Source: Acidimicrobiia bacterium (GTDB lineage Bacteria > Actinomycetota > Acidimicrobiia > Spongiisociales > UBA5794). From it: a stretch of 64,000 bases of DNA. This document shows, piece after piece, positions 24,405-52,762 of the stretch. Position 1 is the first letter of the stretch, and each line of letters opens with the position of its first letter. The position numbers and the translations under genes are program-made. Under the pieces are notes generated by a model. It searched no databases, was not told the origin of the DNA, and worked only from the letters and a program-made list of their open reading frames with translations. The stretch spans positions 3,596-67,595 of the forward strand of contig JALVQZ010000250.1 in NCBI GenBank assembly GCA_027036355.1, read 5' to 3'.

Positions 24405-26777
24405 TCATTCGAGGGTGAGGAGGAAGGCGACGAGATCGTCGATCTCCTGATCGGTGAGCAGTTCATCGAAGTTCTTCAACATCGCGTCGGGGAAGCCTTC
24501 CACGACGTAGGCGCTCGGATCGACGATCGACTGGCGCAGGTACTCCTTCGCCGACATCCCCGGTACGCGGTCCGCTGCTCGGGTCGCGACCCCGTCGAGG
24601 GACGGACCGACGACCACCTTCCCGGGCACGAGCGAGTGGCACACCCGGCAGCCCGAATTGTGGCCGAGGGTCGTCTCGAAGAACAGCGACTTGCCGACAT
24701 CGGCCCGGGAGCCGGTCCGGCTGTCGCTGTACGACAGTGCGAACACCTCGCCGCCGTCGAGTCCGACGGTGCCGTCGAACAGCAGCCACGGCCGGGTCTG
24801 CTCCTGGCGGTCGAACAGCTCCACTCGGACCGTGTGCTGACCGGGGGTCAGCTCGATCTGCTCGTACGCCAGTGAATGGGGGGCACCGTCGACCTCGGCG
24901 GGAGGGTAGGTCTCGTCCAGCACCACGGCGCCGTCGGCTTGAACGATCAAGCGGCTCGCCGTGCCCGCGGCGAGGTCGACCGGGAACCCGAAGCCCTCGA
25001 TGGGAGCCCCGCCCCGATGGTCCAAGGCGACCGTGACGAACGCTGCGTCCGTTGGTCGGGCGGTGAACGGCAACTGCGACGCGACGATCGACAGCACGGT
25101 GGCCAGGGCGACGAGCATCGCCACTCGGGCGAGTCTCGAAGGAGCCGGCCGGTCACATGGATCGGCGACGGGTTGAGATCCCGGATGGTCGAGCGAGAAC
25201 GTGAACTCGGTCGGTGCGACCCAGTCCGAGAACACCCGACCGAGGTATGGCTTCTTCAGCCGCGGGACCCGGGTGCGGTCGATGCGGGCTTGCATCCACG
25301 TGTTGCCCTCGCGGTTGGCGCAGTCCGCCGGAGGGCAGCCGAGGACCTGGACGTCGCCGGCGCCGGCATCGAGGGCGGTGCCGATGAGATCCGGATGCAC
25401 CATCCCGAGGCACGTCACCGGGATGACGTGAACCGGATGATCCGCGTCTTCGACGGATTCGCCGATGAGCGTCCCGCCGGAGAACACTGCGTGCCGTTCG
25501 CAGGTGTACACGATCCGAGGGGAAGAGCCGGTTGCGGCGAGTCGGCGGGTCTCGTCCCATAGCTCTTCGGCGGGGACCGGACCCAAGGTGAGCGCCTCGA
25601 CCGGGCAGCTCCCGATGCAGATCCCGCAAGAGACGCATCGATCATCGACGAGCGCAGCGAGTTGGCGATGGGGGCCGTTGTCGGTCGGGATCATCTCGAG
25701 GGCGCCGTAGGGACAGTCGGCTACGCACAGGGTGCACCCGGTGCACCGCTCGGGGTCGACGACGATCGGCTCGAGCGGGGGACGCCGCAGTGCCCACGGA
25801 AGCGCCGTCAACAGTCCCGCGACGACGACGAAGCCACCCCACACGAGCCCCGGTGGGAGACCCAGCCCGGGGGGCAGCAGGAACAGGTAGAACGGATCGA
25901 GCGGGATGGTGCCTGCGACGTGGCCCGGGTCGACCGGCGGCAGGATCCCGACCGGCCACAGGAGGGCCACCACGACGATCGCCCCTCCGATCGTCATCAT
26001 CCAGTACCTCGGGGGGAACACGAGCGGTCGGTTCAGCCTCTTCAGGTGGTAGTACAACAAGACGCCCACGCCGATCGATACGCCGGCATGGATGAAGAAC
26101 AACAGCAGGATGAACGGCCATCCCGTCTTGGCGACCGGGGTCAGCACGTTGTCGAGCAGGAAGTCGAGGCCGGCGGCGGAGCCGCCGATCGTGCGGGTCA
26201 GCAGGTCGTTGAGGGCTTGGGATCGACGGTCCCAGAGCAGCCAATAGCCGGTGACGCCGATCACCCAGACGAACACCATCATGACCACCCCGGTGGTCCA
26301 GGCCAGCCAGCGGGGCCCTCGGAAGCGGTCCTGGAACACCATGCGCCAGCCGTGGAGGAGGGAGGTGACGACCAGGGCCTGGGAGGCGTACCGGTGGACC
26401 GCCCGGATCACCCGTCCGACGAAGTTGGCTTCGAGACGGCTGATCGCGTCGTACGACGCAGAGAACCCGTACTGGAAGAAGAACGTGACGTAGATGCCGG
26501 TCGCCACCACGATCGCGAACAGGAACACCGAGATCGTTCCGGTGTGGTAGAGGGGATTGAGGCGGGGAGTGCCGACGGCCTTCCCGATCGGGCGCTCGAC
26601 TCGCAGTGTCGCCCGCTCCAGTCGGATCAGGGCCCTCCGCACCCGGTTGCTGGTGCGGAGGGCCCAATCGACCGACGGGCCGACGAGCTCGCGCGGACGC
26701 TTCCGATCCAACCTACGGAGCGATCCGCGGCGACGTCGCCGACATCCCGAAGATCTGGTCGATGAGCTGCGGTCCAT
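24405..26777 (-). CDS. Multidomain redox protein: cytochrome b (N-terminal di-heme membrane domain) + 2x[4Fe-4S] ferredoxin + MvhD/FlpD-like domain + TM + C-terminal mono-heme cytochrome c (CRVCH)
   Basis: 790 aa. The domain order read from the translation is: cytochrome-b-like TM helices with conserved His (HRYASQALVVTSLLHGW...); CTGCTLCVADCPY...CVSCGICIGSCP; IVYTCERHAVF...VIPVTCLGMVHPDL...VLGCPPADC (FlpD/MvhD-like); a hydrophobic helix; and a C-terminal CxxCH heme-c site. It is first (5'-proximal) in the same strand run as the ba3 oxidase genes. Confidence 0.65.
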   Translation of the reverse strand: MDRSSSTRSSGCRRRRRGSLRRLDRKRPRELVGPSVDWALRTSNRVRRALIRLERATLRVERPIGKAVGTPRLNPLYHTGTISVFLFAIVVATGIYVTFFFQYGFSASYDAISRLEANFVGRVIRAVHRYASQALVVTSLLHGWRMVFQDRFRGPRWLAWTTGVVMMVFVWVIGVTGYWLLWDRRSQALNDLLTRTIGGSAAGLDFLLDNVLTPVAKTGWPFILLLFFIHAGVSIGVGVLLYYHLKRLNRPLVFPPRYWMMTIGGAIVVVALLWPVGILPPVDPGHVAGTIPLDPFYLFLLPPGLGLPPGLVWGGFVVVAGLLTALPWALRRPPLEPIVVDPERCTGCTLCVADCPYGALEMIPTDNGPHRQLAALVDDRCVSCGICIGSCPVEALTLGPVPAEELWDETRRLAATGSSPRIVYTCERHAVFSGGTLIGESVEDADHPVHVIPVTCLGMVHPDLIGTALDAGAGDVQVLGCPPADCANREGNTWMQARIDRTRVPRLKKPYLGRVFSDWVAPTEFTFSLDHPGSQPVADPCDRPAPSRLARVAMLVALATVLSIVASQLPFTARPTDAAFVTVALDHRGGAPIEGFGFPVDLAAGTASRLIVQADGAVVLDETYPPAEVDGAPHSLAYEQIELTPGQHTVRVELFDRQEQTRPWLLFDGTVGLDGGEVFALSYSDSRTGSRADVGKSLFFETTLGHNSGCRVCHSLVPGKVVVGPSLDGVATRAADRVPGMSAKEYLRQSIVDPSAYVVEGFPDAMLKNFDELLTDQEIDDLVAFLLTLE

Positions 26778-28386
26778 AGGCCAGCAGGACCAGAACGGCG
26801 GTGCCGACCAGCCATGGCTTCCAGCTGTCGAGCCAGACCGGCGTTCGTTGCGGATCCTCGATCGACTCCGCGACGGGAACGTCCACGAACTCGCCTTCGG
26901 GGAGTTCCTTCTTGCGGAAGGCCGTCACGGCGACGACCACGATGGTCGCCATGATGCCGATCCACATCAGCGATCCGCCGAACCCGACGCGCCACAGGTA
27001 GCCGCTCCACTCCGCCGGCACGTAGGGCGCCAGACCCAACGTCGTGCGCCGGGGCGCTCCCAGCAGCCCCACGGTGTGCATCGCGTTCGAGAAGATCAGC
27101 ATCCCGACGAAGTACGTCCACACCCCGGCCAGGGCGACCTTCGGCTGCCACAGCGGCTTGTGGGTCAGATGGGGAACGAGCCAGAACGAGATGCCGATGA
27201 ACGAGAGCGTCACCGCCGAGGCCACGGTCAGGTGGAAGTGCCCGGGAACCCACGCCGTGTTGTGCAACACCAGGTTCACGTTGTAGGCGGCGTTGGCGAG
27301 GCCGCCGATGCCGCCGAACACGAACAAGATCCCGGCCAGCAACTGGGCGGTCACCGACGGGTTGCTCCAAGGAAGGGCCCTGATCCAACCGAACCGGCCC
27401 TTTCCACCGCGTTGCCTGGCTCCGTACTCGAGGCTGGCGATCACGGTGAAGAACGTCAGCAGCGACGGGAAGAAGACCGAGAAGGTCAAGATCGCGTGGA
27501 CGTACTTCCATCCTGCGGGAACGCCGGGATCGACGAACTGATGGTGGAACCCGAGGGGAACCGACAGGAGGAGGAACAGCCAGAACGCGAGCCTCGCCAG
27601 CGAGTCGCTGAACAGCTTGCCGTCGACCTGCTTGGGAAGCATGCCGTACCACGACACGTACGCAGGCAGCAGCCAGAAGTACACCAACGGATGGCCCGTG
27701 AACCAGAAGAAGGTCCGCGAGAGCTGCGGGTCGATACCGTCGGTCAGCCCCATCGACCAGGGCAGCAGCAGCCCGAGGATCTCGGCAGCGACGCCGAGCG
27801 TGGCGATCTGCCACATCACCATCGTGATGAGTGACGCGAAGGCGATGAACGGGGTGCGGGTCTTCGGGTTGTCCTTCCGCCACTGCCAGTAGGTCGCGTA
27901 GAACCCCCATCCTTCGATCCAGCTCCCGACGACCACCAGCGTCAGTCCCAGGTAGAACCACGTGCTGGCCTGCATCGGCGGGTAGAAGGTGAACAGCACG
28001 GTCGCCTTGTTGAGCAACAGCGGGACGGCGGCCATGAGCAGCCCGACCACCATCGTCCAGAACCCGAACTGGTTCAGCCCCGGGTACGCGAGACGGCGCT
28101 GGAACCCGCGGATGATCGCCACCGTGAGGAAGCCGGTGATGAAGAACGTCGTCCAGACGAGGGCGTTGAGCACTCCATGGAGGGTCAGCCCCTGGTAGTA
28201 CGACTGGATCCCGAACTTCTCGAGCGTCGGGTACAGGTCGAGGCCGGCGTGCTCGAGGGCCTGCAGCGGGCCGAAGAGGCTGCCGATGGTCAATGCCGCG
28301 AAGGCGAACACGAGATGGAGGCCGACGAACCGCCGTTCCTCTCGTGTCAGCGCATAGACAGGTGTCTTTGTCGTTGTTTCAGCCAC
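26713..28386 (-). CDS. Heme-copper oxidase subunit I (ba3-type cytochrome c oxidase)
   Basis: 557 aa. GTG start at 28386 (RBS aggaggg). Conserved His ligands and 12+ TM helices (…WFTGHPLVYFWLLP…HHQF…). Its start overlaps the last 64 nt of the upstream fusion gene. Confidence 0.9.
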   Translation of the reverse strand: MAETTTKTPVYALTREERRFVGLHLVFAFAALTIGSLFGPLQALEHAGLDLYPTLEKFGIQSYYQGLTLHGVLNALVWTTFFITGFLTVAIIRGFQRRLAYPGLNQFGFWTMVVGLLMAAVPLLLNKATVLFTFYPPMQASTWFYLGLTLVVVGSWIEGWGFYATYWQWRKDNPKTRTPFIAFASLITMVMWQIATLGVAAEILGLLLPWSMGLTDGIDPQLSRTFFWFTGHPLVYFWLLPAYVSWYGMLPKQVDGKLFSDSLARLAFWLFLLLSVPLGFHHQFVDPGVPAGWKYVHAILTFSVFFPSLLTFFTVIASLEYGARQRGGKGRFGWIRALPWSNPSVTAQLLAGILFVFGGIGGLANAAYNVNLVLHNTAWVPGHFHLTVASAVTLSFIGISFWLVPHLTHKPLWQPKVALAGVWTYFVGMLIFSNAMHTVGLLGAPRRTTLGLAPYVPAEWSGYLWRVGFGGSLMWIGIMATIVVVAVTAFRKKELPEGEFVDVPVAESIEDPQRTPVWLDSWKPWLVGTAVLVLLAYGPQLIDQIFGMSATSPRIAP

Positions 28387-35665: not shown

Positions 35666-36881
35666 ATGGACACCCCCCGGCCCGCCACCGCCGCCCTCGC
35701 CGCCGCGAGGCGCGGATGGTCCGTCGTTCCCGTTCACGGCATCGTCGACGGACGATGTACCTGCGGCCGCGACGGCTGCCCGTCCCCCGGCAAGCATCCT
35801 CGGATCCGGTGGAGAGCGTTCATGACCGAGCCGGCTTCCCCCGGGCAGGTGGGCGCCTGGTGGCGACGCTGGCCCGACGCCAACGTCGGCATCGTGACCG
35901 GGGTGGTGTCGGGCCTCGCCGTCGTCGACGTCGATCCTCGCAACGACGGCGACCGGACGCTCGACGAGCTCGAGGCAGGGTACGGGCCGCTGCCCGACAC
36001 CGTCGTGTCCCTCACCGGCGGCGGCGGCGAGCACCTCTGGTTCGAGGTGGGCGATCGACCCGTCCCGTCGGTCGTGCTCGGCGACGGAGTCGAGCTCAAG
36101 GCCGAAGGGGGCATGGTCGTCGCTCCGCCGAGTCGACACGTCTCGGGGGGCACGTACCGCTGGCTCAACGGCGCCGGACCCGACCGCCATCGGTTCGCTC
36201 CGCTACCGGACTGGATCGCCCACCTCGCCGGCGCCGGGTTCCGGCGGGGGAGCGCCGCCGGTGCGGCACCCCCCAGGACCGAAGCCGAGCAAGCCGAGTT
36301 CGCCGACACCTGGGCCCGGGTCGGGGTCGTGGTCGTCCCCCGGCGACAACTACTACCTGTGTCCGTTCCACGACGATCATCATCCCTCGCTCCACATCGA
36401 CGCCGAAGGATGCCGCTGGTACTGCTTCGCCTGCCGCATCGGGGGAGGCATCGGGGCGTTGCGGCGCAAGCTCGGCGATCGGGCGCCGACCCGCCCGCGT
36501 CGACGGCTGCGGGGCTGGGTCGGGCCGCAGCGGATGATCACCATCGTCGGCGACACCGAGATCGACGTCGTCGGCGAGTCCGACCACCAAGACGAGCTCC
36601 TCGAGTTGAGCGGGGGACGGCGGTCCTACGCCGGGGTCGAGCTGGACGCCGCCGCCGAACTGATCCCCGACGAGGAGGAACATCACCTGATCGAGGTCTG
36701 GATCGCGGATCGTCCGGTCGGTCGGCTCCGGTTCGAGGACGGGGCCCGTCTCCGTCACGTCGTCGACGAGGCCATCGAGCGGTTCGGCTCGGCGACCTGC
36801 CGGGCCCAGATCCGCGGCGGATGGGACCTCGGTGACGGCGACGTCGGCATGTTCGGCGTGGTCCTGTACTGCGACGGCTGA
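35666..36881 (+). pseudogene. Bifunctional primase-polymerase (PrimPol N-terminal domain) + CHC2 zinc finger gene, interrupted by a +1/-1 frameshift in a C5 run near 36340
   Basis: Frame A (35666..) carries the PrimPol_N domain (GWSVVPVHGIVDGRCTCGRDGCPSPGKHPRIRW...VDVDPRND...). After ...TWARVGVVVVP the frame A product turns into Arg-rich artefact. Frame B (36261..36881) continues with GDNYYLCPFHDDHHPSLHIDAEGCRWYCFACRIGG (zf-CHC2) and an extra C-terminal domain. The junction is gtcgtcccccggcgac. Confidence 0.6.
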
Positions 36882-36928
36882 GCGGGCATCTCGCATCGCG
36901 TAGAGTGGGGCGCCGGAGAGGAGGTGAG

Positions 36929-38821
36929 ATGCGAAAGGGACGCACACGGCTGACCGAACCGCTCGTCCGCGATGGCGACGGCTTCCGGACGGCAACCTGG
37001 GACGAAGCCCTCGATCGGGCCGCCGCCGGGTTCCGAGCCACCGTGGACACCCACGGCCCCACGGCGTTCGGGATGTTCTCGTGCTCGAAGGCGACCAACG
37101 AGATGAACTTCGTCGCCCAGAAGTTCGCCAGGGTCGCGATCGGCTCGAACAACATCGACAGCTGCAACCGCACCTGACACGCTCCTTCCGTCGTCGGTCT
37201 GGCGACAGTGTTCGGAGCGGGAGGCGGTACGAGCTCCTACGAGGAGATCGAGCACACGGATCTCATCGTCCTGTGGGGCTCGAACGCCCGCGCCGCGCAT
37301 CCGATCTTCTTCCACCACCTCCTGAAGGGCATCGACAACGGGGCCCGCATGATCGCCATCGACCCGCGGCGCACCGAATCGGCGGCCTGGGCGGACCTGT
37401 GGCTCGGCCTCGACGTCGGCACCGACATCGCGCTCGCCAACGCCGTCGGACGCGAGATCATCGCCGCCGGGCTCACCAACGACGACTTCATCGCTCGGGC
37501 CACCACCGGGTTCGACGCCTACGCCGAGGCGGTCGAGCCCTACACGCTCGAGCACGCGGCCGAGCTCACCGGCGTCCCCGCCGAAGCGATCCGGGAGCTC
37601 GCCCACGCGTACGCCAAGGCCCCGACCGCGCAGCTCTGCTGGACCCTCGGGATCACCGAGCACCACAACGCCTCCGACAACGTGTTCGCGCTCATCGACC
37701 TGGCGCTGCTCACCGGGCACGTCGGTCGGTACGGGTCGGGTCTCGTTCCGATCCGGGGCCAGAACAACGTCCAAGGGGGCGGCGACATGGGCGCCCTGCC
37801 GAACAAGCTCCCCGGCTTCCAGGACGTCGCCGACGACGACGCTCGCCGGCGCTTCGAGGAAGCGTGGGGATGCACCGTCCCCGCCGAGCCGGGCTGGCAT
37901 CTCTCCCAGATGTTCGAAGCGATGGAGCGCGGCGACCTGCGGGCGCTGTACGTGATCGGCGAGAACCCTGCCCAATCGGAAGCCGACGGCACGCGGGCCC
38001 GCCGGGCGCTCGAAGGACTCGACCATCTCGTCGTCCAGGACATCTTCCTCACCGCGACCGCCGAGCTGGCCGACGTGGTCCTCCCCGCCGGGGCCGCATG
38101 GGCAGAGTCGGAGGGAACCGTCACATCGTCCGAGCGTCGGGTCCAGCGGGTGCGGCGGGCCGTGCCGCCGCCGGGCAACGCCAGGGACGACACCGACATC
38201 ATCGTCGATCTGGCCCGCCGTCTCGGTCACGACTGGGGTCATCCCTCCGCAGAGGAGGTCTGGGACGAGCTGAGGTCGTTGTCGCCGATCCACGCCGGCA
38301 TGAGCTACCGGCGTCTCGAGGAGCTCGGCGGTCTCCGATGGCCGTGCCGGGACGAGGACGACCCCGGCGCGCTGTTCCTCCACGGCCGGCTCTGGGAGGA
38401 CCCGCCCCGCGGCCCGAAAGCCCCCTTCACGCCGGTCGAGCACGACCCCCCGAAGGACGAGCTGACCGACGACTTCCCGATCCGGCTCACCACCGGCCGG
38501 CATCTCGACTCGTACAACACCGGGGTCCAGTCCGGCCGGTACCGGTCGCCCCGCCGGACCGGCGGCACCATCGACCTGTCACCCGAAGACGCCGCTTCCC
38601 TGGGGCTCGCCGCCGGTGACCGGGCTCGGATCACGTCGCGGCGGGGAAGCGTCGTCGCCCCGGTGCGGATCGACCGGTCGTTGCGGCCCGGCTTGGCCTT
38701 CATGGCGTTCCACTACCCCGAGGACGTGGACACGAACCGGCTGACCTTGGACGAGTGGGACCCGAAGTCGGGAACGGCCGAGTTCAAGGCCACCGCGGTG
38801 CGCATCGAGAAGGAGGCCTAG
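36929..38821 (+). CDS. fdhA: Formate dehydrogenase catalytic (Mo-bisMGD) subunit with in-frame TGA at 37175-37177 (putative selenocysteine)
   Basis: ORFs 36905..37177 and 37208..38821 are in the same frame, separated only by TGA. The context is SCSKATNEMNFVAQKFARVAIGSNNIDSCNRT-TGA-HAPSVVGLATVFGAGGGTSSYEEIEHTDLIVLWGSN, which reproduces the FdhF/FdnG ...CARV-U-HGPSVAGL... selenocysteine motif. ATG 36929 follows ggagaggagg. The N-terminal Fe-S domain of typical alpha subunits is absent here. Confidence 0.7.
37178..37222 (+). promoter_or_regulatory. Candidate SECIS-like hairpin immediately 3' of the in-frame TGA
   Basis: CGCTCC (37180-37185) can pair with GGAGCG (37214-37219), enclosing further pairable segments (ccgtcg...cgacag). 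The fold was not computed. Confidence 0.3.
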
Positions 38822-40576
38822 GTGGACATCCGTCTCCCCGCCGCAGTGGCGACCGACGACGAACGCCGCGCCGTCGACCGGATCCTGGGACCGCCGACGA
38901 CCGGATGGGAGGGCGGTGAACGGCGCCGTGTCGACGGTCACGTCGCGACCGGCGGCCACGCGGCCCGGGCTCGTCGCCATCTCCTCCTGCCCGTGCTCCA
39001 CGCCCTCCAGGACGACATCGGGTGGATCTCCGACGGCGCGGTCGGGTACGTCTGCGAGCGCCTCGTCGTTCCCGCGGCCGAGGTCTACGGGGTGGCGACC
39101 TTCTACGGGCTCCTGTCGGTGGCCGAGGCGCCGCCCGTCGCCATCCATCTCTGCGACGACATCGTGTGCCGGACGGCAGGAGCCAAGGAGCTGTTCACCG
39201 CACTGGCGGACACCGTCGGCCCCGAAGGCTCCTCGGACGGCAGCCGCACGTGGCATCGGAGCAACTGCCTGGGACAGTGCGACGCGGCTCCCGCAGCGTT
39301 CGTCCAGGCGGCCGGAGAGGGGCGACGGACCGTGATCCGGGCCGATCTCGACCGACTCGCCGCAGCGCCGACCGACGACCGCGAACCGGCCTACGCGGTG
39401 ATCGGCGATCCGGTGCTGACGGCCCGGTTCGGCGCCGCCGACCCGGGCGACCTGGACGCCTATCGAGCTTCCGGCGGGTACGTCGCGCTCCGTCGAGCCC
39501 TCGAGATCGGTCCCGACGCCGTCGTCGCCATCGTCGAGGCGTCGGGACTTCGGGGTCGTGGCGGCGCCGCGTTCCCGACCGGTCGCAAATGGCGGGCGGT
39601 CGCGGACACCGAAGCCGCCGAACGCCTCGTCGTATGCAACGCCGACGAGTCCGAGCCCGGAACGTTCAAGGACCGCATGCTGATGGAGCGCGACCCCTTC
39701 GCGGTCGTCGAAGGCCTGACCATCGCCGGTCACGCCACCGGGGCCACGAAGGGCTTCATCTACGTGCGAGGCGAGTACCCCGACGCCGAGAACCGACTGG
39801 TTGCCGCCATCGAGGAAGCCGAAGCGGCCGGCCTCCTCGGCGACGACGTCCTCGGCTCCGGGTTCCCGTTCCACATCGAGCTGCGCCGCGGCGCGGGCGC
39901 CTACATCTGCGGTGAGGAGACGGCGCTGTTCGAGTCCATCGAGGGCTTCCGAGGCGAACCGCGAGCCAAACCCCCGTACCCGACGACCGACGGCCTGTTC
40001 GGGAGACCGACGGCCGTCAACAACGTCGAGACCCTGGCGGCGGCCGTCGCGATCGTCGCCGAGGTGCCGGGTGCGGCGAACACGAAGCTGTTCTGCGTCT
40101 CGGGGCACGTCGAGGCCCCCGGGGTGGTCGAAGCGCCCTTCGGGGTGACCGTGCGGGAGCTGCTGACGGTGGCCGGATCCGCTCGTCCCCCTCAGGCCGT
40201 CCTCTTCGGAGGTGCGGCCGGTCGGTTCCTGGCCCCCGCCGAACTCGACGTTCCGCTCGGGTACGAGCCGCCGTCGCCGCCGCTGGGCTCGGGCGCGGTC
40301 GTCGCGTTCGGTCCCGGCGTCGACATGGACGACGTCGTCCAGCGGATCGCCGAGTTCTTCCGAGACGAATCGTGCGGACAGTGCGTCCCGTGCCGGGAAG
40401 GGACGGTGCGCCAGGACGAAGCCCTTCGTCGTCTCGTCGCCGGATCCGACGAGCGCGGTCTGATCGACGAGATCGCCCGGGTGATGCGGGACGCGTCGAT
40501 CTGCGGGCTCGGCCAGACCGCGGCCGAGGCGGTCACCTCGGCGATCGCCCTGGGACTGGTCGGAGGGGCGCGATGA
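38822..40576 (+). CDS. NAD-linked formate dehydrogenase beta subunit: fused NuoE-like (2Fe-2S) and NuoF-like (FMN/NADH, 4Fe-4S) domains
   Basis: 584 aa. The N-terminal thioredoxin-like 2Fe-2S Cys pattern is followed by GRGGAAFPTGRKW, the glycine-rich NAD/FMN motifs and the C-terminal 4Fe-4S ESCGQCVPCREG of NuoF/FdsB proteins. Confidence 0.85.
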   Translation: MDIRLPAAVATDDERRAVDRILGPPTTGWEGGERRRVDGHVATGGHAARARRHLLLPVLHALQDDIGWISDGAVGYVCERLVVPAAEVYGVATFYGLLSVAEAPPVAIHLCDDIVCRTAGAKELFTALADTVGPEGSSDGSRTWHRSNCLGQCDAAPAAFVQAAGEGRRTVIRADLDRLAAAPTDDREPAYAVIGDPVLTARFGAADPGDLDAYRASGGYVALRRALEIGPDAVVAIVEASGLRGRGGAAFPTGRKWRAVADTEAAERLVVCNADESEPGTFKDRMLMERDPFAVVEGLTIAGHATGATKGFIYVRGEYPDAENRLVAAIEEAEAAGLLGDDVLGSGFPFHIELRRGAGAYICGEETALFESIEGFRGEPRAKPPYPTTDGLFGRPTAVNNVETLAAAVAIVAEVPGAANTKLFCVSGHVEAPGVVEAPFGVTVRELLTVAGSARPPQAVLFGGAAGRFLAPAELDVPLGYEPPSPPLGSGAVVAFGPGVDMDDVVQRIAEFFRDESCGQCVPCREGTVRQDEALRRLVAGSDERGLIDEIARVMRDASICGLGQTAAEAVTSAIALGLVGGAR

Positions 40577-41418
40577 CCGACCGCCACACGGTCCAGATCG
40601 ACGGCGTCGCCGTGGTCGTCGAAGCCGGCGCCACGATCCTCGACGCCTGCCGCGCCGGCGGTGTCGACGTCCCGACCCTGTGCTACCTCGAGACGCTGAC
40701 CCCGGCCAATGCCTGCCGTCTCTGCTCGGTCGAGGTCGAAGGAAGCCGCACGCTGGTTCCCGCGTGTTCCCGGATCGCCGAGGACGGGATGGTCGTCCAC
40801 ACCGGATCGGACCGGGTCCGGCATGCTCGGCGCATGATCCTGGAGTTCCTCGGAGCGGCCGTCGACCTGACGACGGCGCCCGAGCTGCTGGAGGCCATGG
40901 CCGCCTACGGGGCCGACCCGTCCCGGTATGGGGCCGGGGGAGGGTCGCCGAGGTCGAGCGCCGTCGTCGACAACGACCTGTACGTCCGCGACCTCGACAA
41001 GTGCGTGCTGTGCTACCGCTGCGTCGAGGCGTGCGGGGACGATGCCCAACACACCTACGCGATCACGATCGCCGATCGCGGCGCCGGTGCCCGGGTGGCC
41101 ACCGAATTCGACGTGGCGCTGCCCGACTCGGCGTGCGTCTTCTGCGGGAACTGCGTCGCGGTGTGCCCGACCGGAGCGTTGATGGTCAGGACCGAGTTCG
41201 ACATGCGCGCCGCGGGAACGTGGCACGAGGACGTCCAGACGGTGACCCGGACGGTCTGTGGGTACTGCGGGGTCGGCTGCAACCTCGACGTGCACGTGCA
41301 AGACGGGGCCATCGTCAAGGTCACCTCACCGTTCGACCACGACGTCACCTCAGGGAACCTCTGCATCAAGGGCCGGTTCGGGTGGACCCACGTCCGAGCC
41401 GGCGTCGACGGGAGCTGA
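40573..41418 (+). CDS. NuoG/FdsA N-terminal-like Fe-S subunit (2Fe-2S ferredoxin + 4Fe-4S clusters + molybdopterin-oxidoreductase Fe4S4 domain), separate from the catalytic subunit
   Basis: 281 aa. ATG 40573 overlaps the upstream stop (ATGA). Motifs LCYLETLTPANACRLCSVEV, CVLCYRCVEACGD, CVFCGNCVAVCPTGAL, VCGYCGVGCNLDV...CIKGRF. Confidence 0.8.
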   Translation: MTDRHTVQIDGVAVVVEAGATILDACRAGGVDVPTLCYLETLTPANACRLCSVEVEGSRTLVPACSRIAEDGMVVHTGSDRVRHARRMILEFLGAAVDLTTAPELLEAMAAYGADPSRYGAGGGSPRSSAVVDNDLYVRDLDKCVLCYRCVEACGDDAQHTYAITIADRGAGARVATEFDVALPDSACVFCGNCVAVCPTGALMVRTEFDMRAAGTWHEDVQTVTRTVCGYCGVGCNLDVHVQDGAIVKVTSPFDHDVTSGNLCIKGRFGWTHVRAGVDGS

Positions 41419-44467: not shown

Positions 44468-45227
44468 CGTCCGACCCTAGGCCACACGGCGTCCGGCGGC
44501 GCCGATCTGTCGGCAACGCGCCGGTCGTTCGCACGGTGGATTCAACTGGTCGTTGCAACACCTCGATGTGGAGGTGTGCGATGGGACGGCCAGCTGGGTG
44601 GATGGTGAAGCTGACGGGGCGGGCGCCGATGAAGTCGCCTGGGAAGCTCCCCGGTCGTCAGCCCCTCCCTAGTGCCGTCGTCGATGTCGGCCTGGGCCAT
44701 CCACCGGCCCAGCACGCGAGCTCGGAGACCCCCCTGGATCCTCAGCCAACAGACGGATCGGCTTCGGCCGCCACCGTCGCCAACTCCACCGCCCTTCGCC
44801 GGAACTCCGGCGGGAACGCTGCAGGCATCCGCCTCTCCTCTCCGAGACCCCTCAGGCCTCACACGATACGTGTCCGGAGAAACGGGGGAAGCTCACAGCG
44901 CTATGACTCCCGGGGGGCACGATCCTAGCTTCCCGGCCCCCGCCGTGCTCGGGGACGACCGCGGCGGCCACCCCTCACCGGTGATCGCGACCCCGATGCC
45001 ACGGAGCCGGGGACGCGGTCACACACCCTGGACCCGGCAAGCGGCACGGGCGGCCCGGAGCACCGTCGGGAAGGGGTGAGCAGGGCCGGTGGGGGCGCGT
45101 TCAGTGAGTGTTCAGTGGCCGCTGATACGGTGCCCGGCAAAGTCGAGCGAGATCCCAACGCCACCCAACCGGCGTCATGCCCGCCCGACGCCGCGCCGTG
45201 ATGCCGTCGAGAAATAGGGGAGACACC

Positions 45228-46799
45228 ATGTCGGAGAGATCGAGTACCGGTGGTGCAGGTCCGGTGAGGGGCTCGAAACCGGGGCGCTCCCCGTCGACGC
45301 GCCGCTTCGGGATAGCCGTGCTGGTGGCGGCAGGACTGCTGCTCGCAGCCTGTGGAGGCTCCGTAGAGGACACCGCCACGACGCTGCCCCCCACCACGGT
45401 GGCGCCCGCCGCCGCCCCGGTCCCCGACGAACTGGCACTCGGCGCCGAGGTCACGTTCCGCATGCCCGACGACGCCACCTCCCAGCGCCTCACCTTCGAG
45501 GTGCCCCCAGGCGGCGTCGTCACCCTCGCCGTCGAGGGAGCCGCAACGAACGCTGCGGTGGCCTCGGTCGCCGTCGGGCCGACGGGCCAGACGGTGTCGC
45601 GCGTCGACGTGGACCCCGGTGAGACCGCAGCCCCGTTCCGTTACGTCACCAGCACCGACGGCGGCGGGACCTGGGCACTGGACATCCAGAGCAGGTCCGG
45701 CGACTCGGTCACCCTCCTGGTCGACGCACCCGTCCAGGCCGACGGCGGAAGCCCGGGAGACGCAGGTCCGAACGCAGCAGATCCCAAGCCAATCGACACC
45801 GCCACCGAGCTCACCGGCCTGCTCGGAGACGCGGACAACGAGGACTGGTACGTGATCCCGCTCGCAGGCGGCGACATCGTAGCGGTGACGGTCGCCGTGC
45901 CACCCGGCGACGGGACCGCGAGCGTCTTCGGTGACCTCGTCTACAACGGCAACCAGGTCGCCTCGTTCTCCGTCAACGAGGGCGGCGAAGAGTCCATGCG
46001 GCAGATCTTCGCCGGGGACCAGACCGGCGAAACGTACCTGCGCGTCTCGGGCATCGGGGACTACAGCTTCACCGTGGAGGTCGGACCCCAGACCGACGGC
46101 GGGAGCGAGGGGGACGCCGGCGGGGACCTCGCCGACGCCAAGGACGTCGGCTTCGGGGACGTCTCCGGGATCCTGGGAGGAGACGACGCGCAGGACTACT
46201 ACGTGGCGAACCTGCCCAAGGACGCCGTGATCGTCGGGACGTTCACCTCGTCGCCCGAAGCGCTCGGGGAGCTGCGCATCGAGCTGATCCACAACGGTGC
46301 GAAGTTCACAACGGCCAGCCTCAACCCCGGACAGAGCGAAGAGATGACCTTCGCCCAGGTCAACGGCGAAGGCGACCAGCTCTACATCCGGGTAGCGAGC
46401 CAGGGCGGCGAGTACACCATGACCCTCGAAGCAAGCACTCAGCCGGACGGCGGCGACGGCACGGGGGATGCCCAGGACGAACCGGGACTCGCGAAACAAA
46501 TCGCTCCCGATGCCACCTTCGACGGCATCATCAACAACACGGGGAGCATCGACCCACGGGACTTCTACACCTTCACGGCGGCCGCAACCGGCGTGCTCAC
46601 CCTCGATGTGTCGGTCGACGCCCGGGTGGGGGCCGACACCCGCATCCAGGTCAGGGATGACGCCAACGTGAAGGTCGCAGACTTCAGCGTCGGACAGGGC
46701 GGGTCGTCCACGGCGTCGATCGACGTCACCGAAGGCACCGTGTACGTGATGGAACTCACGACCCCGGGCCAGGCGCGTTACACGGTGGCGTTGCGATGA
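45228..46799 (+). CDS. Lipoprotein with four pre-peptidase C-terminal (PPC)-like repeats
   Basis: ATG 45228 follows aggggagaca. Signal LLLAACGGS. Four modules of about 105 aa each begin [QT]xDGG[SD]xGDAG and contain DxDWYVIPL/YYVANL/FYTFT motifs. Confidence 0.6.
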   Translation: MSERSSTGGAGPVRGSKPGRSPSTRRFGIAVLVAAGLLLAACGGSVEDTATTLPPTTVAPAAAPVPDELALGAEVTFRMPDDATSQRLTFEVPPGGVVTLAVEGAATNAAVASVAVGPTGQTVSRVDVDPGETAAPFRYVTSTDGGGTWALDIQSRSGDSVTLLVDAPVQADGGSPGDAGPNAADPKPIDTATELTGLLGDADNEDWYVIPLAGGDIVAVTVAVPPGDGTASVFGDLVYNGNQVASFSVNEGGEESMRQIFAGDQTGETYLRVSGIGDYSFTVEVGPQTDGGSEGDAGGDLADAKDVGFGDVSGILGGDDAQDYYVANLPKDAVIVGTFTSSPEALGELRIELIHNGAKFTTASLNPGQSEEMTFAQVNGEGDQLYIRVASQGGEYTMTLEASTQPDGGDGTGDAQDEPGLAKQIAPDATFDGIINNTGSIDPRDFYTFTAAATGVLTLDVSVDARVGADTRIQVRDDANVKVADFSVGQGGSSTASIDVTEGTVYVMELTTPGQARYTVALR

Positions 46800-47902
46800 C
46801 GGCGCAGAGCCGGAGACGGAGGCGCCGATGGTTCCCCGTGGCACTCGCCGGGTTCGCCATCGTTGCTGCATCCGTGCCGGCCGCAGCCCAGGTGCGGTCG
46901 CCTGCAGACTACGTCGGATCTCCCTCCGACCTGTTCCCACCCCCCGGCGTCTACGTCGGGACGATCGAACAGGCCGTCGACGTTGGTGGCTTCATGGGGG
47001 ACGGGATCACGCTTGCCTACGCCGGGAGCTGGAACGGCCCGGCGACCTACACGATCGCCGATGACGTCACAGGAGAGGGCACCTGGAGTCTCGAAGCGAC
47101 CGGGACGATGACCTTCAGCGGCAAGTTCAGTGGGACGCGGTCGTTCTCCATGTCCGAGTCGGGTTCCCTCGACGGTGGGAACCGCGGGTTCCTGATGAAG
47201 GGCTCCGGCTCCGGAACCTCGTCGGGATCCGGCGGATCCGTCACCCTGACCCCCTGGTCGGTGGGCCCGTACGAGGTGAACTTCACCCTCATCGACTGCA
47301 ACCTCGTGTGGGCGGAGTTCGCCCCCGACCTGCTCGAGCTCGCCAGAGGCGTCGGATGGAAGACGGGCTGGGTCGAAGGCCAGTACTACCTCACGAGGGT
47401 TCCCGAGCCGGGCGACGAAGCGCAGTACTCGGCCGAGATGCAGGCTGCCCGCAACTCCCTGCAGTGGACCACAGGTGCAGTCAATGATCTCCTCGATGTG
47501 ACCTTCGCTGCAGCAGAAGCCGGCCAACAACCGGACATGACCGGGTTCGCCCCGCTCCTCGCCAGCATGGAGGAAGACCTGACCCGTGTCGCCCGCCTCG
47601 GCAGGTGCCGAGACGACGACACGAAAGCGGCGCAGTGGCGTACGACGTGGTCGAACGCCATGCTCGACAACCTCCTGGCGCTGCTGGCCTTGTCAGGTGA
47701 GACCATCACCTACTCGGGGGAGACGCTCAACGAGTTCATCACGCTGGCCGCTCGCGCCGGGTCACTCGGGCAGGGAAGCGCCTCCGGGCAGGCACAGGCG
47801 TTCGACGCCGCACTCGGTGACGCCATGGCCGACACGTTGAGCGCCCAAACGGGTCAAGACGCCGCGGTCGCACGAGCGGACCGGCGAATGGGGAACGGCT
47901 GA
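46796..47902 (+). CDS. Tat/Sec-secreted hypothetical protein
   Basis: N-terminal SRRRRRRWFPVALAGFAIVAASVPAAAQ, followed by a Gly/Ser/Thr-rich region. Overlapping start/stop with its neighbours indicates an operon. Confidence 0.5.
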   Translation: MTAQSRRRRRRWFPVALAGFAIVAASVPAAAQVRSPADYVGSPSDLFPPPGVYVGTIEQAVDVGGFMGDGITLAYAGSWNGPATYTIADDVTGEGTWSLEATGTMTFSGKFSGTRSFSMSESGSLDGGNRGFLMKGSGSGTSSGSGGSVTLTPWSVGPYEVNFTLIDCNLVWAEFAPDLLELARGVGWKTGWVEGQYYLTRVPEPGDEAQYSAEMQAARNSLQWTTGAVNDLLDVTFAAAEAGQQPDMTGFAPLLASMEEDLTRVARLGRCRDDDTKAAQWRTTWSNAMLDNLLALLALSGETITYSGETLNEFITLAARAGSLGQGSASGQAQAFDAALGDAMADTLSAQTGQDAAVARADRRMGNG

Positions 47903-48420
47903 TGGCCCTCCGACGCCGGATCACGAACGCGGTGATCGTCGCTGCAGGCATGGCGGTCGTCGTGGCTGCGTGTTCGGGTGGCGCCACCGACGGGCCCGCC
48001 GAGGGATCCGGCACCACGGCGAGCCCGACGACGTCGGCCGCTACGGATCCGACGAGTACCACGACCACACAGCAGGCATCGACGACGACAACGATCCTCG
48101 AAGAGGAGCTGTTCCTCACCGGTCTCGACGTGCCCGAGATCGAGCAGCTCACACCACGATCCGGGGTCGGTCACCGGCCGTTGCTCGAATGGGTATCCGT
48201 CCCTGGAGCCGGGAGCTACGAGGTGACGTTCTTCGACGAGGACGGCTTCCTGTACTGGGCATGGACCGGCAACGAGACGTCGGTGTACCTGGGCGGTGTG
48301 GCCGCCCCCGATGGTACACCCGGACCCGCGGCGCTCGAAGGGATGTCGTGGGCCGTCGTGGCCCTCGACGACACGGGGGCCGTGATCGCCCAGAGCAGGG
48401 TCCGGTCGATCGCACGGTGA
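47902..48420 (+). CDS. Lipoprotein (hypothetical)
   Basis: MALRRRITNAVIVAAGMAVVVAACSGG lipobox, then a Thr-rich linker. 172 aa. Confidence 0.5.
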   Translation: MALRRRITNAVIVAAGMAVVVAACSGGATDGPAEGSGTTASPTTSAATDPTSTTTTQQASTTTTILEEELFLTGLDVPEIEQLTPRSGVGHRPLLEWVSVPGAGSYEVTFFDEDGFLYWAWTGNETSVYLGGVAAPDGTPGPAALEGMSWAVVALDDTGAVIAQSRVRSIAR

Positions 48421-48448
48421 GCAAAACGACCATCGCACGGCGCACCGT

Positions 48449-48766
48449 TCACCCCGTGCGTCGTGCCTGGGTGATGGCGACGCATGCCGCGTCGACCTCG
48501 AAACCCGCCGTCTCGGTGTCGACACAGACGGTGACGACGACGGTGTCCGAGCCCGACCAGTACTCACAGCGCGTCGTGTCCGGCCCCGACTCCGAGGTGC
48601 GGTCCCACCCCTCGAGCACAGCATCGAAGAACGCGATGAGCCGCAGATAATCGTCGAGCGGGTACACGACGGCGACCGTGACCACGGTGGTCGACGCGTA
48701 GGCGGCCGTGATCGTTCCACCCTCCGGGATCGGGATCTCGAGGCTCGTCGGTGCCCCATCGGCCAT
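48449..48766 (-). CDS. Small hypothetical protein (105 aa)
   Basis: C-terminal part of ORF 48449..49285, starting at ATG 48766 (MADGAPTSLEIPIPEGGTITAAYAST...). The upstream part of that ORF is artefact. Confidence 0.3.
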   Translation of the reverse strand: MADGAPTSLEIPIPEGGTITAAYASTTVVTVAVVYPLDDYLRLIAFFDAVLEGWDRTSESGPDTTRCEYWSGSDTVVVTVCVDTETAGFEVDAACVAITQARRTG

Positions 48767-48937
48767 GCGTTCGTCCCTTCCCGGGCGCTCGTGGCTCCAC
48801 GGGCGCCTCATCGCCAGCGGTGCGCCGGGGTCCCCCGATCCCCGGGGACCGTACCCCGCAGGCGTGTCGTTCCTCCCCTCGGGGCCCTGGTAGCGTACGC
48901 CGTCACGCTGAACGATCACTGAACGAAGGGGGCGTGC

Positions 48938-51817
48938 ATGACGGACGCGCCGACCTCCGAGGGGGTGTGGTTCGGCGTCCTGGGGGACCTGCGCATCCGC
49001 GGGACCCGCGGCGATGTCACGCTGACACGGCCGGGGTACCGGCGCACGCTCGCCTGGCTGCTCCTCGACGCACCCCGCCGTGTCGAGTACGACGAGCTCA
49101 TCGACCGCCTGTGGCCCGACGAGGTCCCACCGACGGCGCGCAACACGCTCCAGCACTACGTCTCGGCTCTCCGGCGTGCCCTCGGCAAGGACCGGATCGT
49201 CACGGTCGGCGGCGGGTACGAGTTGCAACTCACCGACGCCGTGCTCGACGCACGCGAGTTCGACGTGCTCGTCGACCTCGCGCACCGGGCGTCGCGCGAC
49301 GGGTACGTCGAGCGTGCCGTGTCCCTCGCAGACAGCGCACTCGAGATGTGGAGGGGCAGGCCGTACCAGGATGTGTCCGGGAGCGACGCCGCCCTTCCCG
49401 AGATCCGGCGGCTCACCCGTTCGAGACAGGAGATCGAGGAGGTACGGCTAGCGTCCCTCATCGACATGGGCCGGCCCCAGCTCGCGGTCCCCGAGCTCGA
49501 GGCGATCACCCACGCCGAGCCGCTGCGGGAGCGGCCCTGGGAACTGCTGATGATGGCCAGGTACCGCAGCGGTGAACAGGCCGAGGCGCTCAGAGCGTTC
49601 CACACAGCCCGTGCACAGCTCGCCGAGCAGGTGGGTCTCGAGCCGGGCCCCGGGCTCGTGCGCCTCGAACGTCAGATTCTCCGCCACGACCCGACGCTCG
49701 TGGAGGTGACCGTTCCGAGGAGGACGAACCTCCCTCCCCCCGAGTGCGAGCTGCTGGGACGCTCGGAGGAGCTGGCGACCCTCGCCGAGCTCGCGACCCG
49801 CGGACCGGTCGTGACGTTGACCGGACCACCGGGGATGGGCAAGACGCACCTGGCGATCGAGACCGCCAGATCGATGGTGGATGTGCACGAGGACGGCGTC
49901 TGGATGGTGTCGCTGCGCGCAGAGACCACGATGCAGGAGGTCACCCGGGCGTTCTCCACCGGTGTCGGCGTGGACACCGGGGCCGATCTCGAGAAGCTCA
50001 CGACCCACCTCCGCCATCTCGATGCGCTCATCGTCATCGACAACGCCGAGCATGTGACCGCCGAGTGTCGCCGGGTGATCGCCGAAGCACTCAAGGGCTC
50101 CCACGCGTTGCGGTTCCTCGTGACCAGCCGCGTGCCGATCGGCGTGTCGGGTGAGACAATCTGGCGGCTGCGGGGCCTCGAGACCGACACGGTGGAGGCC
50201 GGCACGCTCAGTCCCGCCGCAGAGCTCCTCACCTGGCGGATCCAGATGGTGGAGTCCTCGTTCCGGGTGACACGCGCCAACGTTGACAAGCTCAACGCGA
50301 TCGCTTCACGGGCCGACGGCGTGCCCCTCGCCATGGTCCTGATGGCGTCGTGGCTCCCCGCGGTCGGCCTCGACGACGTGGTCGACCTGATGTCGTCACA
50401 GCAGGGCGCACCGGGAGCCGCCACCCTCGACAACGCCCTCAAGTGGAGCTACCGCTTGCTGTCGCCCGAGGACGTCGATCGTTTCAACAGCCTCGCGGTG
50501 TTCGTCGCGTCGTTCGATCTCGACGCCGCCCACGGGGTTGCAGGGCCGGAGCTGGACCGCCGGGCGATGATCGGTGTGATGGCCCGTCTCGTCGAGGCGT
50601 CCCTGCTCGAGACCCTGCGCGCACCCGACGGCTCCCTGCGCTACCGGATGCTGCTACCCATACGGGACCACGCCGTGTCGCTGCTGGAGGGATCCGGGCA
50701 CCTCGAACGGGTCCACGCAGCGTACATCGCGGTGTTCCACGCCCGGGCACGGGAGTTCACGGCCGAGGGCTCGAGCACGGCGGGCCTGGTGCTGTGGCCG
50801 GTCGACCAGGACATCGCCGAGTACCGGGAAGTGATGCGTCTGGCGCTCACCCTCCGGGAGCCCGACGTCACCGCCGACATCGCGTCCGGGCTCACCGAGT
50901 ACTGGTTCGCCCGGTTCCTCGCCTCCGAGGCACGGACCTGGCTCGCGCGCGCAGCACAGCTGTCCTCCCGGCCGCCCACGGCGTTCCACTCGTGGGCGGC
51001 CGGGTTCCTCGCCTACCTCGACGACGACCGGGACGCGGCGCGGCGCCACTTCCGGGCGAGCCTCGACGCAGCCTCCTCCGACGGGGACGACCCGATGCGG
51101 GCACGGGCCCTGTTCGGCCTCGGCCGACTCGAGCTCTTCCACGCCGAGGGCACCCTCGGTGCCGAACATATCGAAGAGGCGATCGCGATCTGGGCCGACG
51201 ACCCATGCACCCTCCGGCTGCGCACCGAAGCACATCTGCTACTCGGCATGCGGGCGACGAGGCTCGGGGCCACCACCGATCCCCATCTCACGGCGGCCGC
51301 GTCGCTGCTCGACACCGTCGACGACGCCAGCCTGCAATCCTCGCTGCTCCGCTACCGGTCGCTGTCGGCGTGGAACCGTGGCGAGTTCGGGGCCGCAGCC
51401 GCACTCGCCGCCGACGCCGTCGCCGCGGCGCGCCGTGCCGACGACGCACCCAAGCTCTGCGGCGCCCTGACGCAGCTGTCGTTCTCGCTCACCGGCAACG
51501 GCGAGCCCGCCGAGGCAGCCCGGGTGATGCTCGAGGCACTCGACGTCGTCGAGGGTCGCAGCCTCGCCGACGTCGCGCAGGTGCTCTCGGGTGCGGTCGG
51601 GCTGATGCTCGACGGTGGCCATCACAGCGAGGCGGCCGAGGTGCTCGCCCTCCTCGACGAGCAGTACGAGCTCGCCGGGATGGGCCCGGTCGACACCGAC
51701 CTGGCTGTGGTCGGCGAGTGGCGCAGCCGGCTCGCGGGGATCGAGCCGCCGGACCGGCCTGCTGCAGACACCATCGAGGCGGCTCGCCGGGTGCTGGTCG
51801 ACACCGCGGGCACCTGA
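48938..51817 (+). CDS. SARP/AfsR-family regulator (OmpR-type wHTH + BTAD + NB-ARC/P-loop ATPase + TPR-like C-terminus)
   Basis: 959 aa. The N-terminal wHTH and BTAD (RAFHTARAQLAEQVGLEPGPGL...LERQIL) are followed by the P-loop LTGPPGMGKTHLA and a long helical-repeat C-terminus. Confidence 0.8.
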   Translation: MTDAPTSEGVWFGVLGDLRIRGTRGDVTLTRPGYRRTLAWLLLDAPRRVEYDELIDRLWPDEVPPTARNTLQHYVSALRRALGKDRIVTVGGGYELQLTDAVLDAREFDVLVDLAHRASRDGYVERAVSLADSALEMWRGRPYQDVSGSDAALPEIRRLTRSRQEIEEVRLASLIDMGRPQLAVPELEAITHAEPLRERPWELLMMARYRSGEQAEALRAFHTARAQLAEQVGLEPGPGLVRLERQILRHDPTLVEVTVPRRTNLPPPECELLGRSEELATLAELATRGPVVTLTGPPGMGKTHLAIETARSMVDVHEDGVWMVSLRAETTMQEVTRAFSTGVGVDTGADLEKLTTHLRHLDALIVIDNAEHVTAECRRVIAEALKGSHALRFLVTSRVPIGVSGETIWRLRGLETDTVEAGTLSPAAELLTWRIQMVESSFRVTRANVDKLNAIASRADGVPLAMVLMASWLPAVGLDDVVDLMSSQQGAPGAATLDNALKWSYRLLSPEDVDRFNSLAVFVASFDLDAAHGVAGPELDRRAMIGVMARLVEASLLETLRAPDGSLRYRMLLPIRDHAVSLLEGSGHLERVHAAYIAVFHARAREFTAEGSSTAGLVLWPVDQDIAEYREVMRLALTLREPDVTADIASGLTEYWFARFLASEARTWLARAAQLSSRPPTAFHSWAAGFLAYLDDDRDAARRHFRASLDAASSDGDDPMRARALFGLGRLELFHAEGTLGAEHIEEAIAIWADDPCTLRLRTEAHLLLGMRATRLGATTDPHLTAAASLLDTVDDASLQSSLLRYRSLSAWNRGEFGAAAALAADAVAAARRADDAPKLCGALTQLSFSLTGNGEPAEAARVMLEALDVVEGRSLADVAQVLSGAVGLMLDGGHHSEAAEVLALLDEQYELAGMGPVDTDLAVVGEWRSRLAGIEPPDRPAADTIEAARRVLVDTAGT

Positions 51818-51863
51818 CCACCCACCCGGCACCCCGGCGCTCGGGTCGCCCGCGGAGCTCCCG

Positions 51864-52185
51864 TCTAGGTGTACTCGGCCATCAGGTTGGTGTCACTCGG
51901 CTGATGGGCGGGCGACGTCCGAGGGAGGAGTGTCTCCGTCGGTGGTTGTAGTGCTCGAGCCATGATGGCAGAGCGTTGGTGCGTTCGTCGTTGCTTGTGA
52001 AGACCTGCCGGTAGGCCCATTCGGTTTGCAGGGTCCGGTTGAAGCGTTCGACCTTGCCGTTCTGCCAGGGGCAGTGGGGCCGTATCGTGACGTGTCGGGC
52101 CCCGATCGCGTCCAGTGCGTCGGTGAACGCCCGGCTCTTGGTATAGGACCAGTGGTTGTCGGTGTCCCGATTCAGGTGAAACGCT
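51864..52185 (-). mobile_element. IS481-family transposase 3' fragment (integrase-core C-terminus)
   Basis: The reverse-strand translation ...HVTIRPHCPWQNGKVERFNRTLQTEWAYRQVFTSNDERTNALPSWLEHYNHRRRHSSLGRRPPISRV matches the rve-domain C-terminus of IS481-type transposases. The N-terminal two-thirds is absent. Confidence 0.6.
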
Positions 52186-52680
52186 CAGCGATCGGCGCAC
52201 TTGTCGAGCGCACCACGCGATTCACGATGTTCATTCATCTGCCACGCGAGGACGGATACGGCAAGGTCCCCCGCACGAAGAACGGACCGGCCTTGGCCGG
52301 CTACGGCGCCATCACCATGAAGAACCGACTCGCCGAGTCGATGACCACCCTGCCCGACCAGCTCCGCCGATCCCTCACATGGGACCGAGGTAAGGAACTC
52401 TCCGCCCACGCCCAGTTCACTGTCGAGACCGATATCCAGTCTTCTTCGCCGACCCGAAAAGCCCCTGGCAGCGCGGCACCAACGAGAACACCAACGGACT
52501 GCTCCGCCAATACTTCCCCAAGGGCACCGACCTCTCCCGCTGGGACGCCGAAGAGATCGAAGCCGTCGCCGCCACCATCAACTCGCGTCCACGCAAGATC
52601 CTCGGCTGGCGAACACCCGCCGAAGCCCTCGACGAGCATCGACGATCCCTCCAACAACCCGGTGTTGCGACCACCGATTG
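52186..52680 (+). mobile_element. IS30-family transposase C-terminal fragment with internal frameshift near 52435
   Basis: ...RSAIGALVERTTRFTMFIHLPREDGYGKVPRTKNGPALAGYGAITMKNRLAESMTTLPDQLRRSLTWDRGKELSAHAQFTVETDIQ. After a 1-nt frame change this continues VFFADPKSPWQRGTNENTNGLLRQYFPKGTDLSRWDAEEIEAVAATINSRPRKILGWRTPAEALDEH. It abuts the IS481 fragment at about 52185. Confidence 0.6.
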
Positions 52681-52762
52681 AATCCGCCCACAACCCCAGG
52701 ATCCATGTGCTAGGCATGTGGGGAGCTATCGCCTCGGTGGAGGCGCAGAAGGAGACACACGT

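Follow-up and report, generated by a model that had tools for sequence, protein, structure and literature searches.

We describe a locus of three consecutive genes in a 64 kb stretch of DNA from an uncultured Acidimicrobiia bacterium (contig JALVQZ010000250.1 of assembly GCA_027036355.1), referred to as the window, which appears to encode a formate dehydrogenase with selenocysteine (Sec) at its active site. The genes and the features of the locus are listed in Table 1. The first gene (fdhA-like) most likely starts at the ATG at 36929, which is preceded by the Shine-Dalgarno sequence GGAGAGGAGG. Its TAG abuts the GTG of the second gene (fdhB-like) at 38819-38824, and the stop of the second gene overlaps the start of the third (fdhC-like) as ATGA at 40573-40576.

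The domain content of the three proteins was determined with Pfam. The fdhA-like protein has only Molybdopterin (E = 1e-70) and Molydop_binding (E = 1e-27), and no iron-sulphur (Fe-S) domain was found in it. The second protein has 2Fe-2S_thioredx, as in NuoE, followed by the NuoF-like domains Complex1_51K, SLBB and NADH_4Fe-4S, and the third has Fer2_4, 4Fe-4S dicluster and Molybdop_Fe4S4 domains, so that NuoE-, NuoF- and NuoG-like modules, the hallmark of formate dehydrogenases of the complex-I N-module type, are all encoded here. The Molybdop_Fe4S4 domain is absent from the polypeptide with the molybdenum domains and sits at the C-terminal end of the separate Fe-S subunit, where it carries Cys ligands and a Lys matching C8, C11, C15, C42 and K44 of Escherichia coli FdhF.

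Table 1. Features of the formate dehydrogenase locus, in window coordinates (SECIS, selenocysteine insertion sequence)
Feature	Coordinates	Strand	Remarks
fdhA-like catalytic subunit, 630 aa, predicted Sec at residue 83	36929..38821	+	stop TAG; alternative GTG start at 36905
Predicted UGA selenocysteine codon	37175..37177	+	aligned with Sec140 of E. coli FdhF and with Cys in Cys-type orthologues
SECIS-like stem-loop	37180..37219	+	lower stem 37180-37185 with 37214-37219; upper stem 37190-37195 with 37201-37206
Apical loop GGUCU	37196-37200	+	part of the SECIS-like stem-loop
fdhB-like subunit, 584 aa, fusion of NuoE-like [2Fe-2S] and NuoF-like FMN/NAD/[4Fe-4S] parts	38822..40576	+	GTG start
fdhC-like Fe-S subunit, 281 aa, NuoG-type [2Fe-2S], two [4Fe-4S], Molybdop_Fe4S4	40573..41418	+	

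The in-frame TGA of the catalytic gene

The TGA at 37175-37177 is the sole break between two open reading frames (ORFs) in the same frame, 36905..37177 and 37208..38821, and the translation around it reads SNNIDSCNRT-TGA-HAPSVVGLATVFGAGGG. In an alignment of the catalytic subunit with E. coli FdhF, residues U83, H84 and R276 fall on U140, H141 and R333. When the C-terminal 66 residues of the Fe-S subunit are joined to the whole catalytic subunit, the concatenate is collinear with FdhF and keeps its C8, C11, C15, C42, K44, U140, H141 and R333. The best matches of the catalytic subunit in the PDB are all formate dehydrogenases, namely FdhF of the hydrogen-dependent CO2 reductase (HDCR; 7qv7), FdhF (1aa6), Fdh1A (7vw6) and FdsA (6tg9); together with the two molybdenum domains, the Sec/Cys-His pair and the catalytic Arg place the protein in the formate dehydrogenase catalytic type. 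Full-length orthologues from cultured Streptomyces, Saccharopolyspora and Thermopolyspora (66-69% identity), called Cys-type here, have Cys at the position of the TGA and read DSCNRTCHAPSV.

We collected the DNA of relatives from five metagenome loci and the best 80 species-representative genome loci (L001-L085). The homologous codon is an in-frame TGA in 85 of the 85 loci with an intact site, in the context DSCNRT-TGA-HAPSV, and it is also TGA in two further loci with ~89% nucleotide identity to the window (L092/L093). The ratio of nonsynonymous to synonymous substitution rates (dN/dS) upstream of the TGA (56-70 codons) is 0.06-0.22 in most comparisons with the relatives. The most divergent relatives, compared without gaps, give values of up to 0.62, which indels may inflate. 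Downstream of the TGA (90 codons) dN/dS is 0-0.37. With ratios below 1, both flanks are under purifying selection and thus maintained as coding sequence. An in-frame UGA aligned with Cys or Sec is expected of a selenoprotein recoded by SelB, and we find it here because the orthologues have Cys, the relatives have TGA and FdhF has U140 at this place. These comparisons identify the TGA as the predicted selenocysteine codon at the active-site Sec/Cys position.

A first-pass annotation, made from the letters of the sequence, had proposed that the two ORFs are one frame broken only by this TGA, that the TGA stands at the selenocysteine site of FdhF-type enzymes and is followed by a hairpin, and that the catalytic subunit has no N-terminal Fe-S domain. 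The translation, the alignments with U140 and with the Cys of the orthologues, the comparative conservation of the hairpin and the Pfam result agree with it on all of these points. It had also suggested looking for TGC or TGT at this codon in relatives, and Cys codons were found only in the Cys-type orthologues, all of the 85 closest loci having TGA.

Public annotations treat the TGA as a stop. The nearest database proteins (78-79% identity) all start at a GTG just past the TGA, and therefore gene callers cut them at the same place. The database protein P0001, from an independent assembly, is 100% identical and starts at the same downstream GTG. In every gene call visible to us (P0001, P0006, P0015, P0031, P0032, P0049, P0090, L001-L005 and L092/L093) the Sec-type fdhA is split into an ORF of 79-82 aa and an ORF of 535-541 aa, the latter starting from a GTG past the SECIS. 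We consider this splitting probably a systematic error because all 85 loci share the in-frame TGA. The value of the finding lies mainly in annotation: a selenoenzyme that is widespread is being overlooked in Acidimicrobiia and in many other uncultured lineages.

A copy of ~35 nt of the Sec-codon region (AGCTGCAACCGGACGTGACACGCCCCTAGCG) was observed in L061 at ~8990-9030, 1.2 kb upstream of the real fdhA and apparently noncoding. Either a remnant or a regulatory element similar to a SECIS may explain this copy.

The hairpin downstream of the TGA

We calculated third-position entropies for the 274 codon columns that are conserved and fourfold degenerate in an alignment of 85 distinct Sec-type genes. 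The lowest values belong to the codons +5 to +9 after the UGA, which are consecutive and have 0-0.27 bits, with a gene median of 1.46 and a next lowest column of 0.59. These codons spell GUCG(U/C)C-GGUCU-GGCG(A/G)C. Across 79 distinct aligned sequences the two-helix structure is paired in 89% of the cells, versus 30-66% in slid controls, and almost every cell of the upper helix is paired. In this helix two sequences have a compensatory change from CG to GC, and UA/UG and UG/CG/UA variants also occur.

The loop, G22-G23-U24-C25-U26 when numbered from the U of UGA, is identical in position and sequence to that of fdhF in the E. coli K-12 genome, so a stem-loop with a conserved apical loop stands at a fixed distance after the UGA, as is typical of selenoprotein genes. 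Three Cys-type genes encode the same peptide by other codons and do not have the GGUCU hairpin. Our comparison thus shows that the hairpin is conserved at the RNA level, with its loop in register with the SECIS of E. coli fdhF. The family provides 85 natural sequence variants of such a compact SECIS. A scan against Rfam at gathering thresholds gave no match in the region.

In L006, ARAGORN called a tRNA-Asp of 98 nt with anticodon ATC at 3059-3156, inside fdhA and beginning 26 nt past the Sec codon. This call is almost certainly a false positive arising from a structured region.

Gene order, distribution and known systems

The order of catalytic gene, NuoEF fusion gene and Fe-S gene is found in all of the 76 relatives with enough contig sequence; nine loci whose contig ends before the third gene and one with a partial NuoEF match were left out of this count. 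The same order occurs in three Cys-type operons, those of Thermopolyspora flexuosa, Streptomyces samsunensis and Saccharopolyspora antimicrobica, and fdhD is the next gene after two of them. Among the Sec-type relatives, 23 have fdhD near the operon. We observed the family in metagenome-assembled genomes (MAGs) labelled as Acidimicrobiia, other Actinomycetota, Acidobacteriota, Gemmatimonadota, Rokubacteria, Methylomirabilota and Chloroflexi, and also in the planctomycete isolate Aquisphaera insulae. Because the layout is conserved in these 76 relatives and the three Cys-type operons, it is family-wide and not specific to the window, and it is the defining arrangement of a large family. The first-pass annotation was right that a NuoG-like Fe-S gene follows a NuoE/NuoF fusion in the order catalytic (Sec), beta, N-terminal part of alpha, as Pfam, the structure alignments and the gene order in the relatives all indicate. 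The rarity that it implied did not hold up: both the split and the gene order are standard in a very large family, and a Sec-containing three-subunit form had already been published.

That published form is FDH3 of Actinomycetospora chiangmaiensis DSM 45062. Its subunits are FdhA3 (640 aa, with the metallopterin domain only and a predicted Sec, U80), FdhB3 (614 aa, NuoE plus NuoF) and FdhC3 (316 aa), which stands as a protein of its own and has as its homologue, in the fused alpha subunits of strains AM1 and H16, the Fe-S domain at their N-terminus (Rohwerder et al. 2020, PMC7176365). A SECIS was predicted, all three subunits were found in the proteome with ~threefold induction on 2-hydroxyisobutyrate, and formate removal by this organism depended on selenium (PMC7176365). 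FDH3 is cytoplasmic and was predicted to be NAD+-linked (PMC7176365). The window locus has the same alpha/beta/gamma layout and similar sizes (630/584/281 aa and U83 versus 640/614/316 aa and U80), a likeness to FDH3 (WP_084681743.1) that is drawn from the published description and not from an alignment. The host of FDH3 belongs to Pseudonocardiales, whereas that of the window is an uncultured member of Acidimicrobiia. The enzyme type is common in many bacteria, and its three-subunit Sec form has been on record since 2020 for a cultured actinobacterium.

The window operon is similar to Fdh1AB of Methylorubrum extorquens, and also to the FdsABG enzymes of Cupriavidus and Rhodobacter. For the tungsten enzyme Fdh1AB of M. 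extorquens AM1 (PDB 7vw6, 7e5z), residues 73-339 of Fdh1A align with the Fe-S subunit, residues 371-978 of Fdh1A with the catalytic subunit, and residues 47-556 of Fdh1B (7e5z_B) with residues 50-575 of the NuoEF fusion, which is also matched by FdsB and NuoF. The Fe-S subunit aligns with the N-termini of both Fdh1A and FdsA, and shares with Fdh1A the lack of Cys in the stretch that carries the His-ligated cluster in NuoG-type proteins. Fdh1A is one polypeptide, whereas the alpha subunit of the window is split past Molybdop_Fe4S4 and would use Sec, which is not conserved at the active site of Fdh1A (Rohwerder et al., PMC7176365). No solved structure with the split architecture was found in our PDB search.

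E. coli FdhF shares with the window the Sec-His pair, Arg333, the [4Fe-4S] ligands, Lys44 and GGUCU at nt 22-26. It differs in being a single chain, ~38% identical, without a NuoEFG-like module, and in its hairpin sequence outside the loop. FdhF feeds the hydrogenase-3 complex. The Cys-type orthologues share all three genes and their order with the window, in many cases with fdhD behind them, but have TGC or TGT for the TGA and no GGUCU hairpin.

In Saccharopolyspora antimicrobica (L090, 2279-7518) the Cys-type operon adjoins genes for a thiamine pyrophosphate enzyme similar to oxalyl-CoA decarboxylase, a family III CoA-transferase (formyl-CoA transferase) and a protein similar to acyl-CoA synthetases. 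This context suggests a link between oxalate/formyl-CoA breakdown and the Cys-type dehydrogenase.

Our alignments show that the ancestral alpha chain is divided just past its first [4Fe-4S] domain, Molybdop_Fe4S4, with the two pieces now flanking the beta gene. The permuted order most likely goes back to a single rearrangement of a beta-alpha operon, after which it would have been both inherited and transferred as a unit; a tandem duplication of the beta-alpha operon followed by loss of the outer parts could be a possible route. In a rough neighbour-joining tree the Cys forms fall into two pure clades amid several Sec clades, which is compatible with replacement of Sec by Cys and is not decisive. 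The alpha subunit of formate dehydrogenase is the most widespread bacterial selenoprotein, and the Sec trait has been transferred among Actinobacteria (Peng et al. 2016, PMC5029168).

We speculate that the Sec form of the split enzyme is ancestral and dominant and has spread horizontally among aerobic bacteria of soils and the sea, most of them uncultured, from at least eight phyla, that its first [4Fe-4S] cluster is supplied in trans after a circular permutation, and that gene callers miss it. This is a tentative picture, and the odds are somewhat against all of its parts holding together. If true, the family would be a natural case of an enzyme with molybdenum bis-pyranopterin guanine dinucleotide that receives its first [4Fe-4S] cluster in trans after circular permutation at the operon level. 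The splitting by gene callers would then hide the Sec form, and selenium use by groups like Acidimicrobiia would be underestimated. The current understanding of selenocysteine decoding and of formate dehydrogenases is unchanged by these data.

The predicted enzyme, its host and the neighbouring genes

We conclude, with a probability of about 0.9, that the three genes form an operon and encode a cytoplasmic formate dehydrogenase with a Mo- or W-bis-pyranopterin cofactor, belonging to the complex-I N-module type. The enzyme is probably NAD-linked. SelB with Sec-tRNA(Sec) would recognise the hairpin, leading to the insertion of selenocysteine at residue 83. By homology, formate would be oxidised at the Mo/W-Sec centre with His84 and Arg276, and the electrons would pass to a [4Fe-4S] cluster given in trans by the small Fe-S subunit. 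From there they would go through the two [4Fe-4S] clusters and the [2Fe-2S] cluster of this subunit to the NuoF-like [4Fe-4S] cluster, FMN and NAD+.

Several observations weigh against such an enzyme. No selA, selB or selD was found in the 64 kb window by tblastn with the E. coli proteins, no fdhD by tblastn with actinomycete FdhD, and no tRNA-Sec gene is present in it. The first-pass annotation had reported the absence of sel genes, fdhD and fdhE from the window, which stands for selA, selB, selD, tRNA-Sec and fdhD; fdhE was not searched for. The folding energy of the hairpin is unremarkable relative to shuffled sequences at 68.5% GC (z = -0.45 and -0.18), and it was dropped as evidence since it gives no separation from the GC-rich background; the hairpin is accepted because of the comparative evidence. 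A permissive scan with the Rfam model SECIS_3 gave a full-length match in register of 13.3 bits, which is not significant (gathering threshold 63, E = 2.8), and the bulged U of the E. coli SECIS type is absent from the hairpin. The NAD+ acceptor, the catalytic direction and the choice between Mo and W are assigned from homology only.

It is improbable, though the likeliest of the alternatives, that the locus encodes a Sec-containing molybdoenzyme with another role, such as CO2 reduction, or with another substrate or electron partner. Formate oxidation by the window protein is predicted from its homologues, the top-scoring solved structure is the CO2-reducing FdhF of HDCR, and modules of the NuoEF type also serve hydrogenases and bifurcating enzymes. 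However, the Sec-His-Arg set specific to formate dehydrogenases is conserved, and the operon has no hydrogenase or ferredoxin partner. The window also encodes an aerobic lifestyle, with COX1 and the catalase-peroxidase KatG. Among the orthologous systems, the Saccharopolyspora operon adjoins genes for the formate-yielding enzymes oxalyl-CoA decarboxylase and formyl-CoA transferase, and in A. chiangmaiensis the removal of formate is selenium-dependent and FDH3 is induced ~threefold. These points argue for a formate dehydrogenase.

Another explanation would be that the TGA is a true stop in an organism without Sec machinery, leaving a pseudogene or two polypeptides of ~82 aa and 537 aa. The window does lack sel genes and tRNA-Sec, TGA is its usual stop (it ends 20 of the 25 genes), and public gene callers annotate two ORFs. 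Yet the identical codon is TGA in all 85 relatives, dN/dS stays below 1 on both sides of it, the synonymous positions of the hairpin are extremely conserved and a truncated enzyme would lose its metal ligand. Moreover, some relatives encode Sec machinery beside the orthologous operon: L033, L040, L051, L074 and L085 have sel genes less than 10 kb away, with selA in four of the five, selB in all five and selD in three, and L040 and L074 also have a tRNA-Sec gene there. We regard a true stop as very improbable, and favour the reading of the TGA as a selenocysteine codon. A global reassignment of TGA was considered and rejected, as 20 of the 25 window genes terminate with it.

An error for TGC or TGT in sequencing or assembly is hardly credible: only one base separates these codons from TGA and the window probably comes from a metagenome assembly, but independent assemblies break alike, the identical P0001 with the same downstream GTG among them, and TGA is also present in L092/L093 and in 83 other loci.

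The assignment of the host to a high-GC actinobacterium, made in the first-pass annotation, is consistent with the 68.5% GC content and with the phosphoenolpyruvate carboxylase of the window, for which every named match is an Acidimicrobiia or Actinomycetota MAG. The best relative of the formate dehydrogenase is from an Acidimicrobiaceae MAG (79% identity). Our literature search found no paper combining Acidimicrobiia, selenoprotein and formate dehydrogenase, and a search on NuoG/NuoF-type formate dehydrogenases in Acidimicrobiia gave nothing relevant.

Outside the operon, surE alone is common to the window and L001-L004, which makes synteny a weak guide to taxonomy. Between surE and fdhA the window has a Prim-Pol ORF (35666..36835) and a CHC2 zinc-ribbon ORF (36261..36881), which overlap in different frames, and the signal of GC content at third positions switches frame at ~36300. 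The region 35666-36881 resembles either a primase-polymerase gene with a frameshift or a pair of overlapping genes. A HrpA-type helicase is found at this place in L001-L004.

The window is otherwise collinear with L092/L093, from which 8.2 kb (44535-52697) are absent. This segment has three ORFs without Pfam matches and a 959-aa regulator with a BTAD domain (48938-51817), and the difference is an insertion in the window or a deletion in L092/L093. On the reverse strand, an ORF of 790 aa at 24405-26777 combines cytochrome b, 4Fe-4S dicluster and FlpD (methyl-viologen-reducing hydrogenase delta) domains, and adjoins COX1 (26713-28386).

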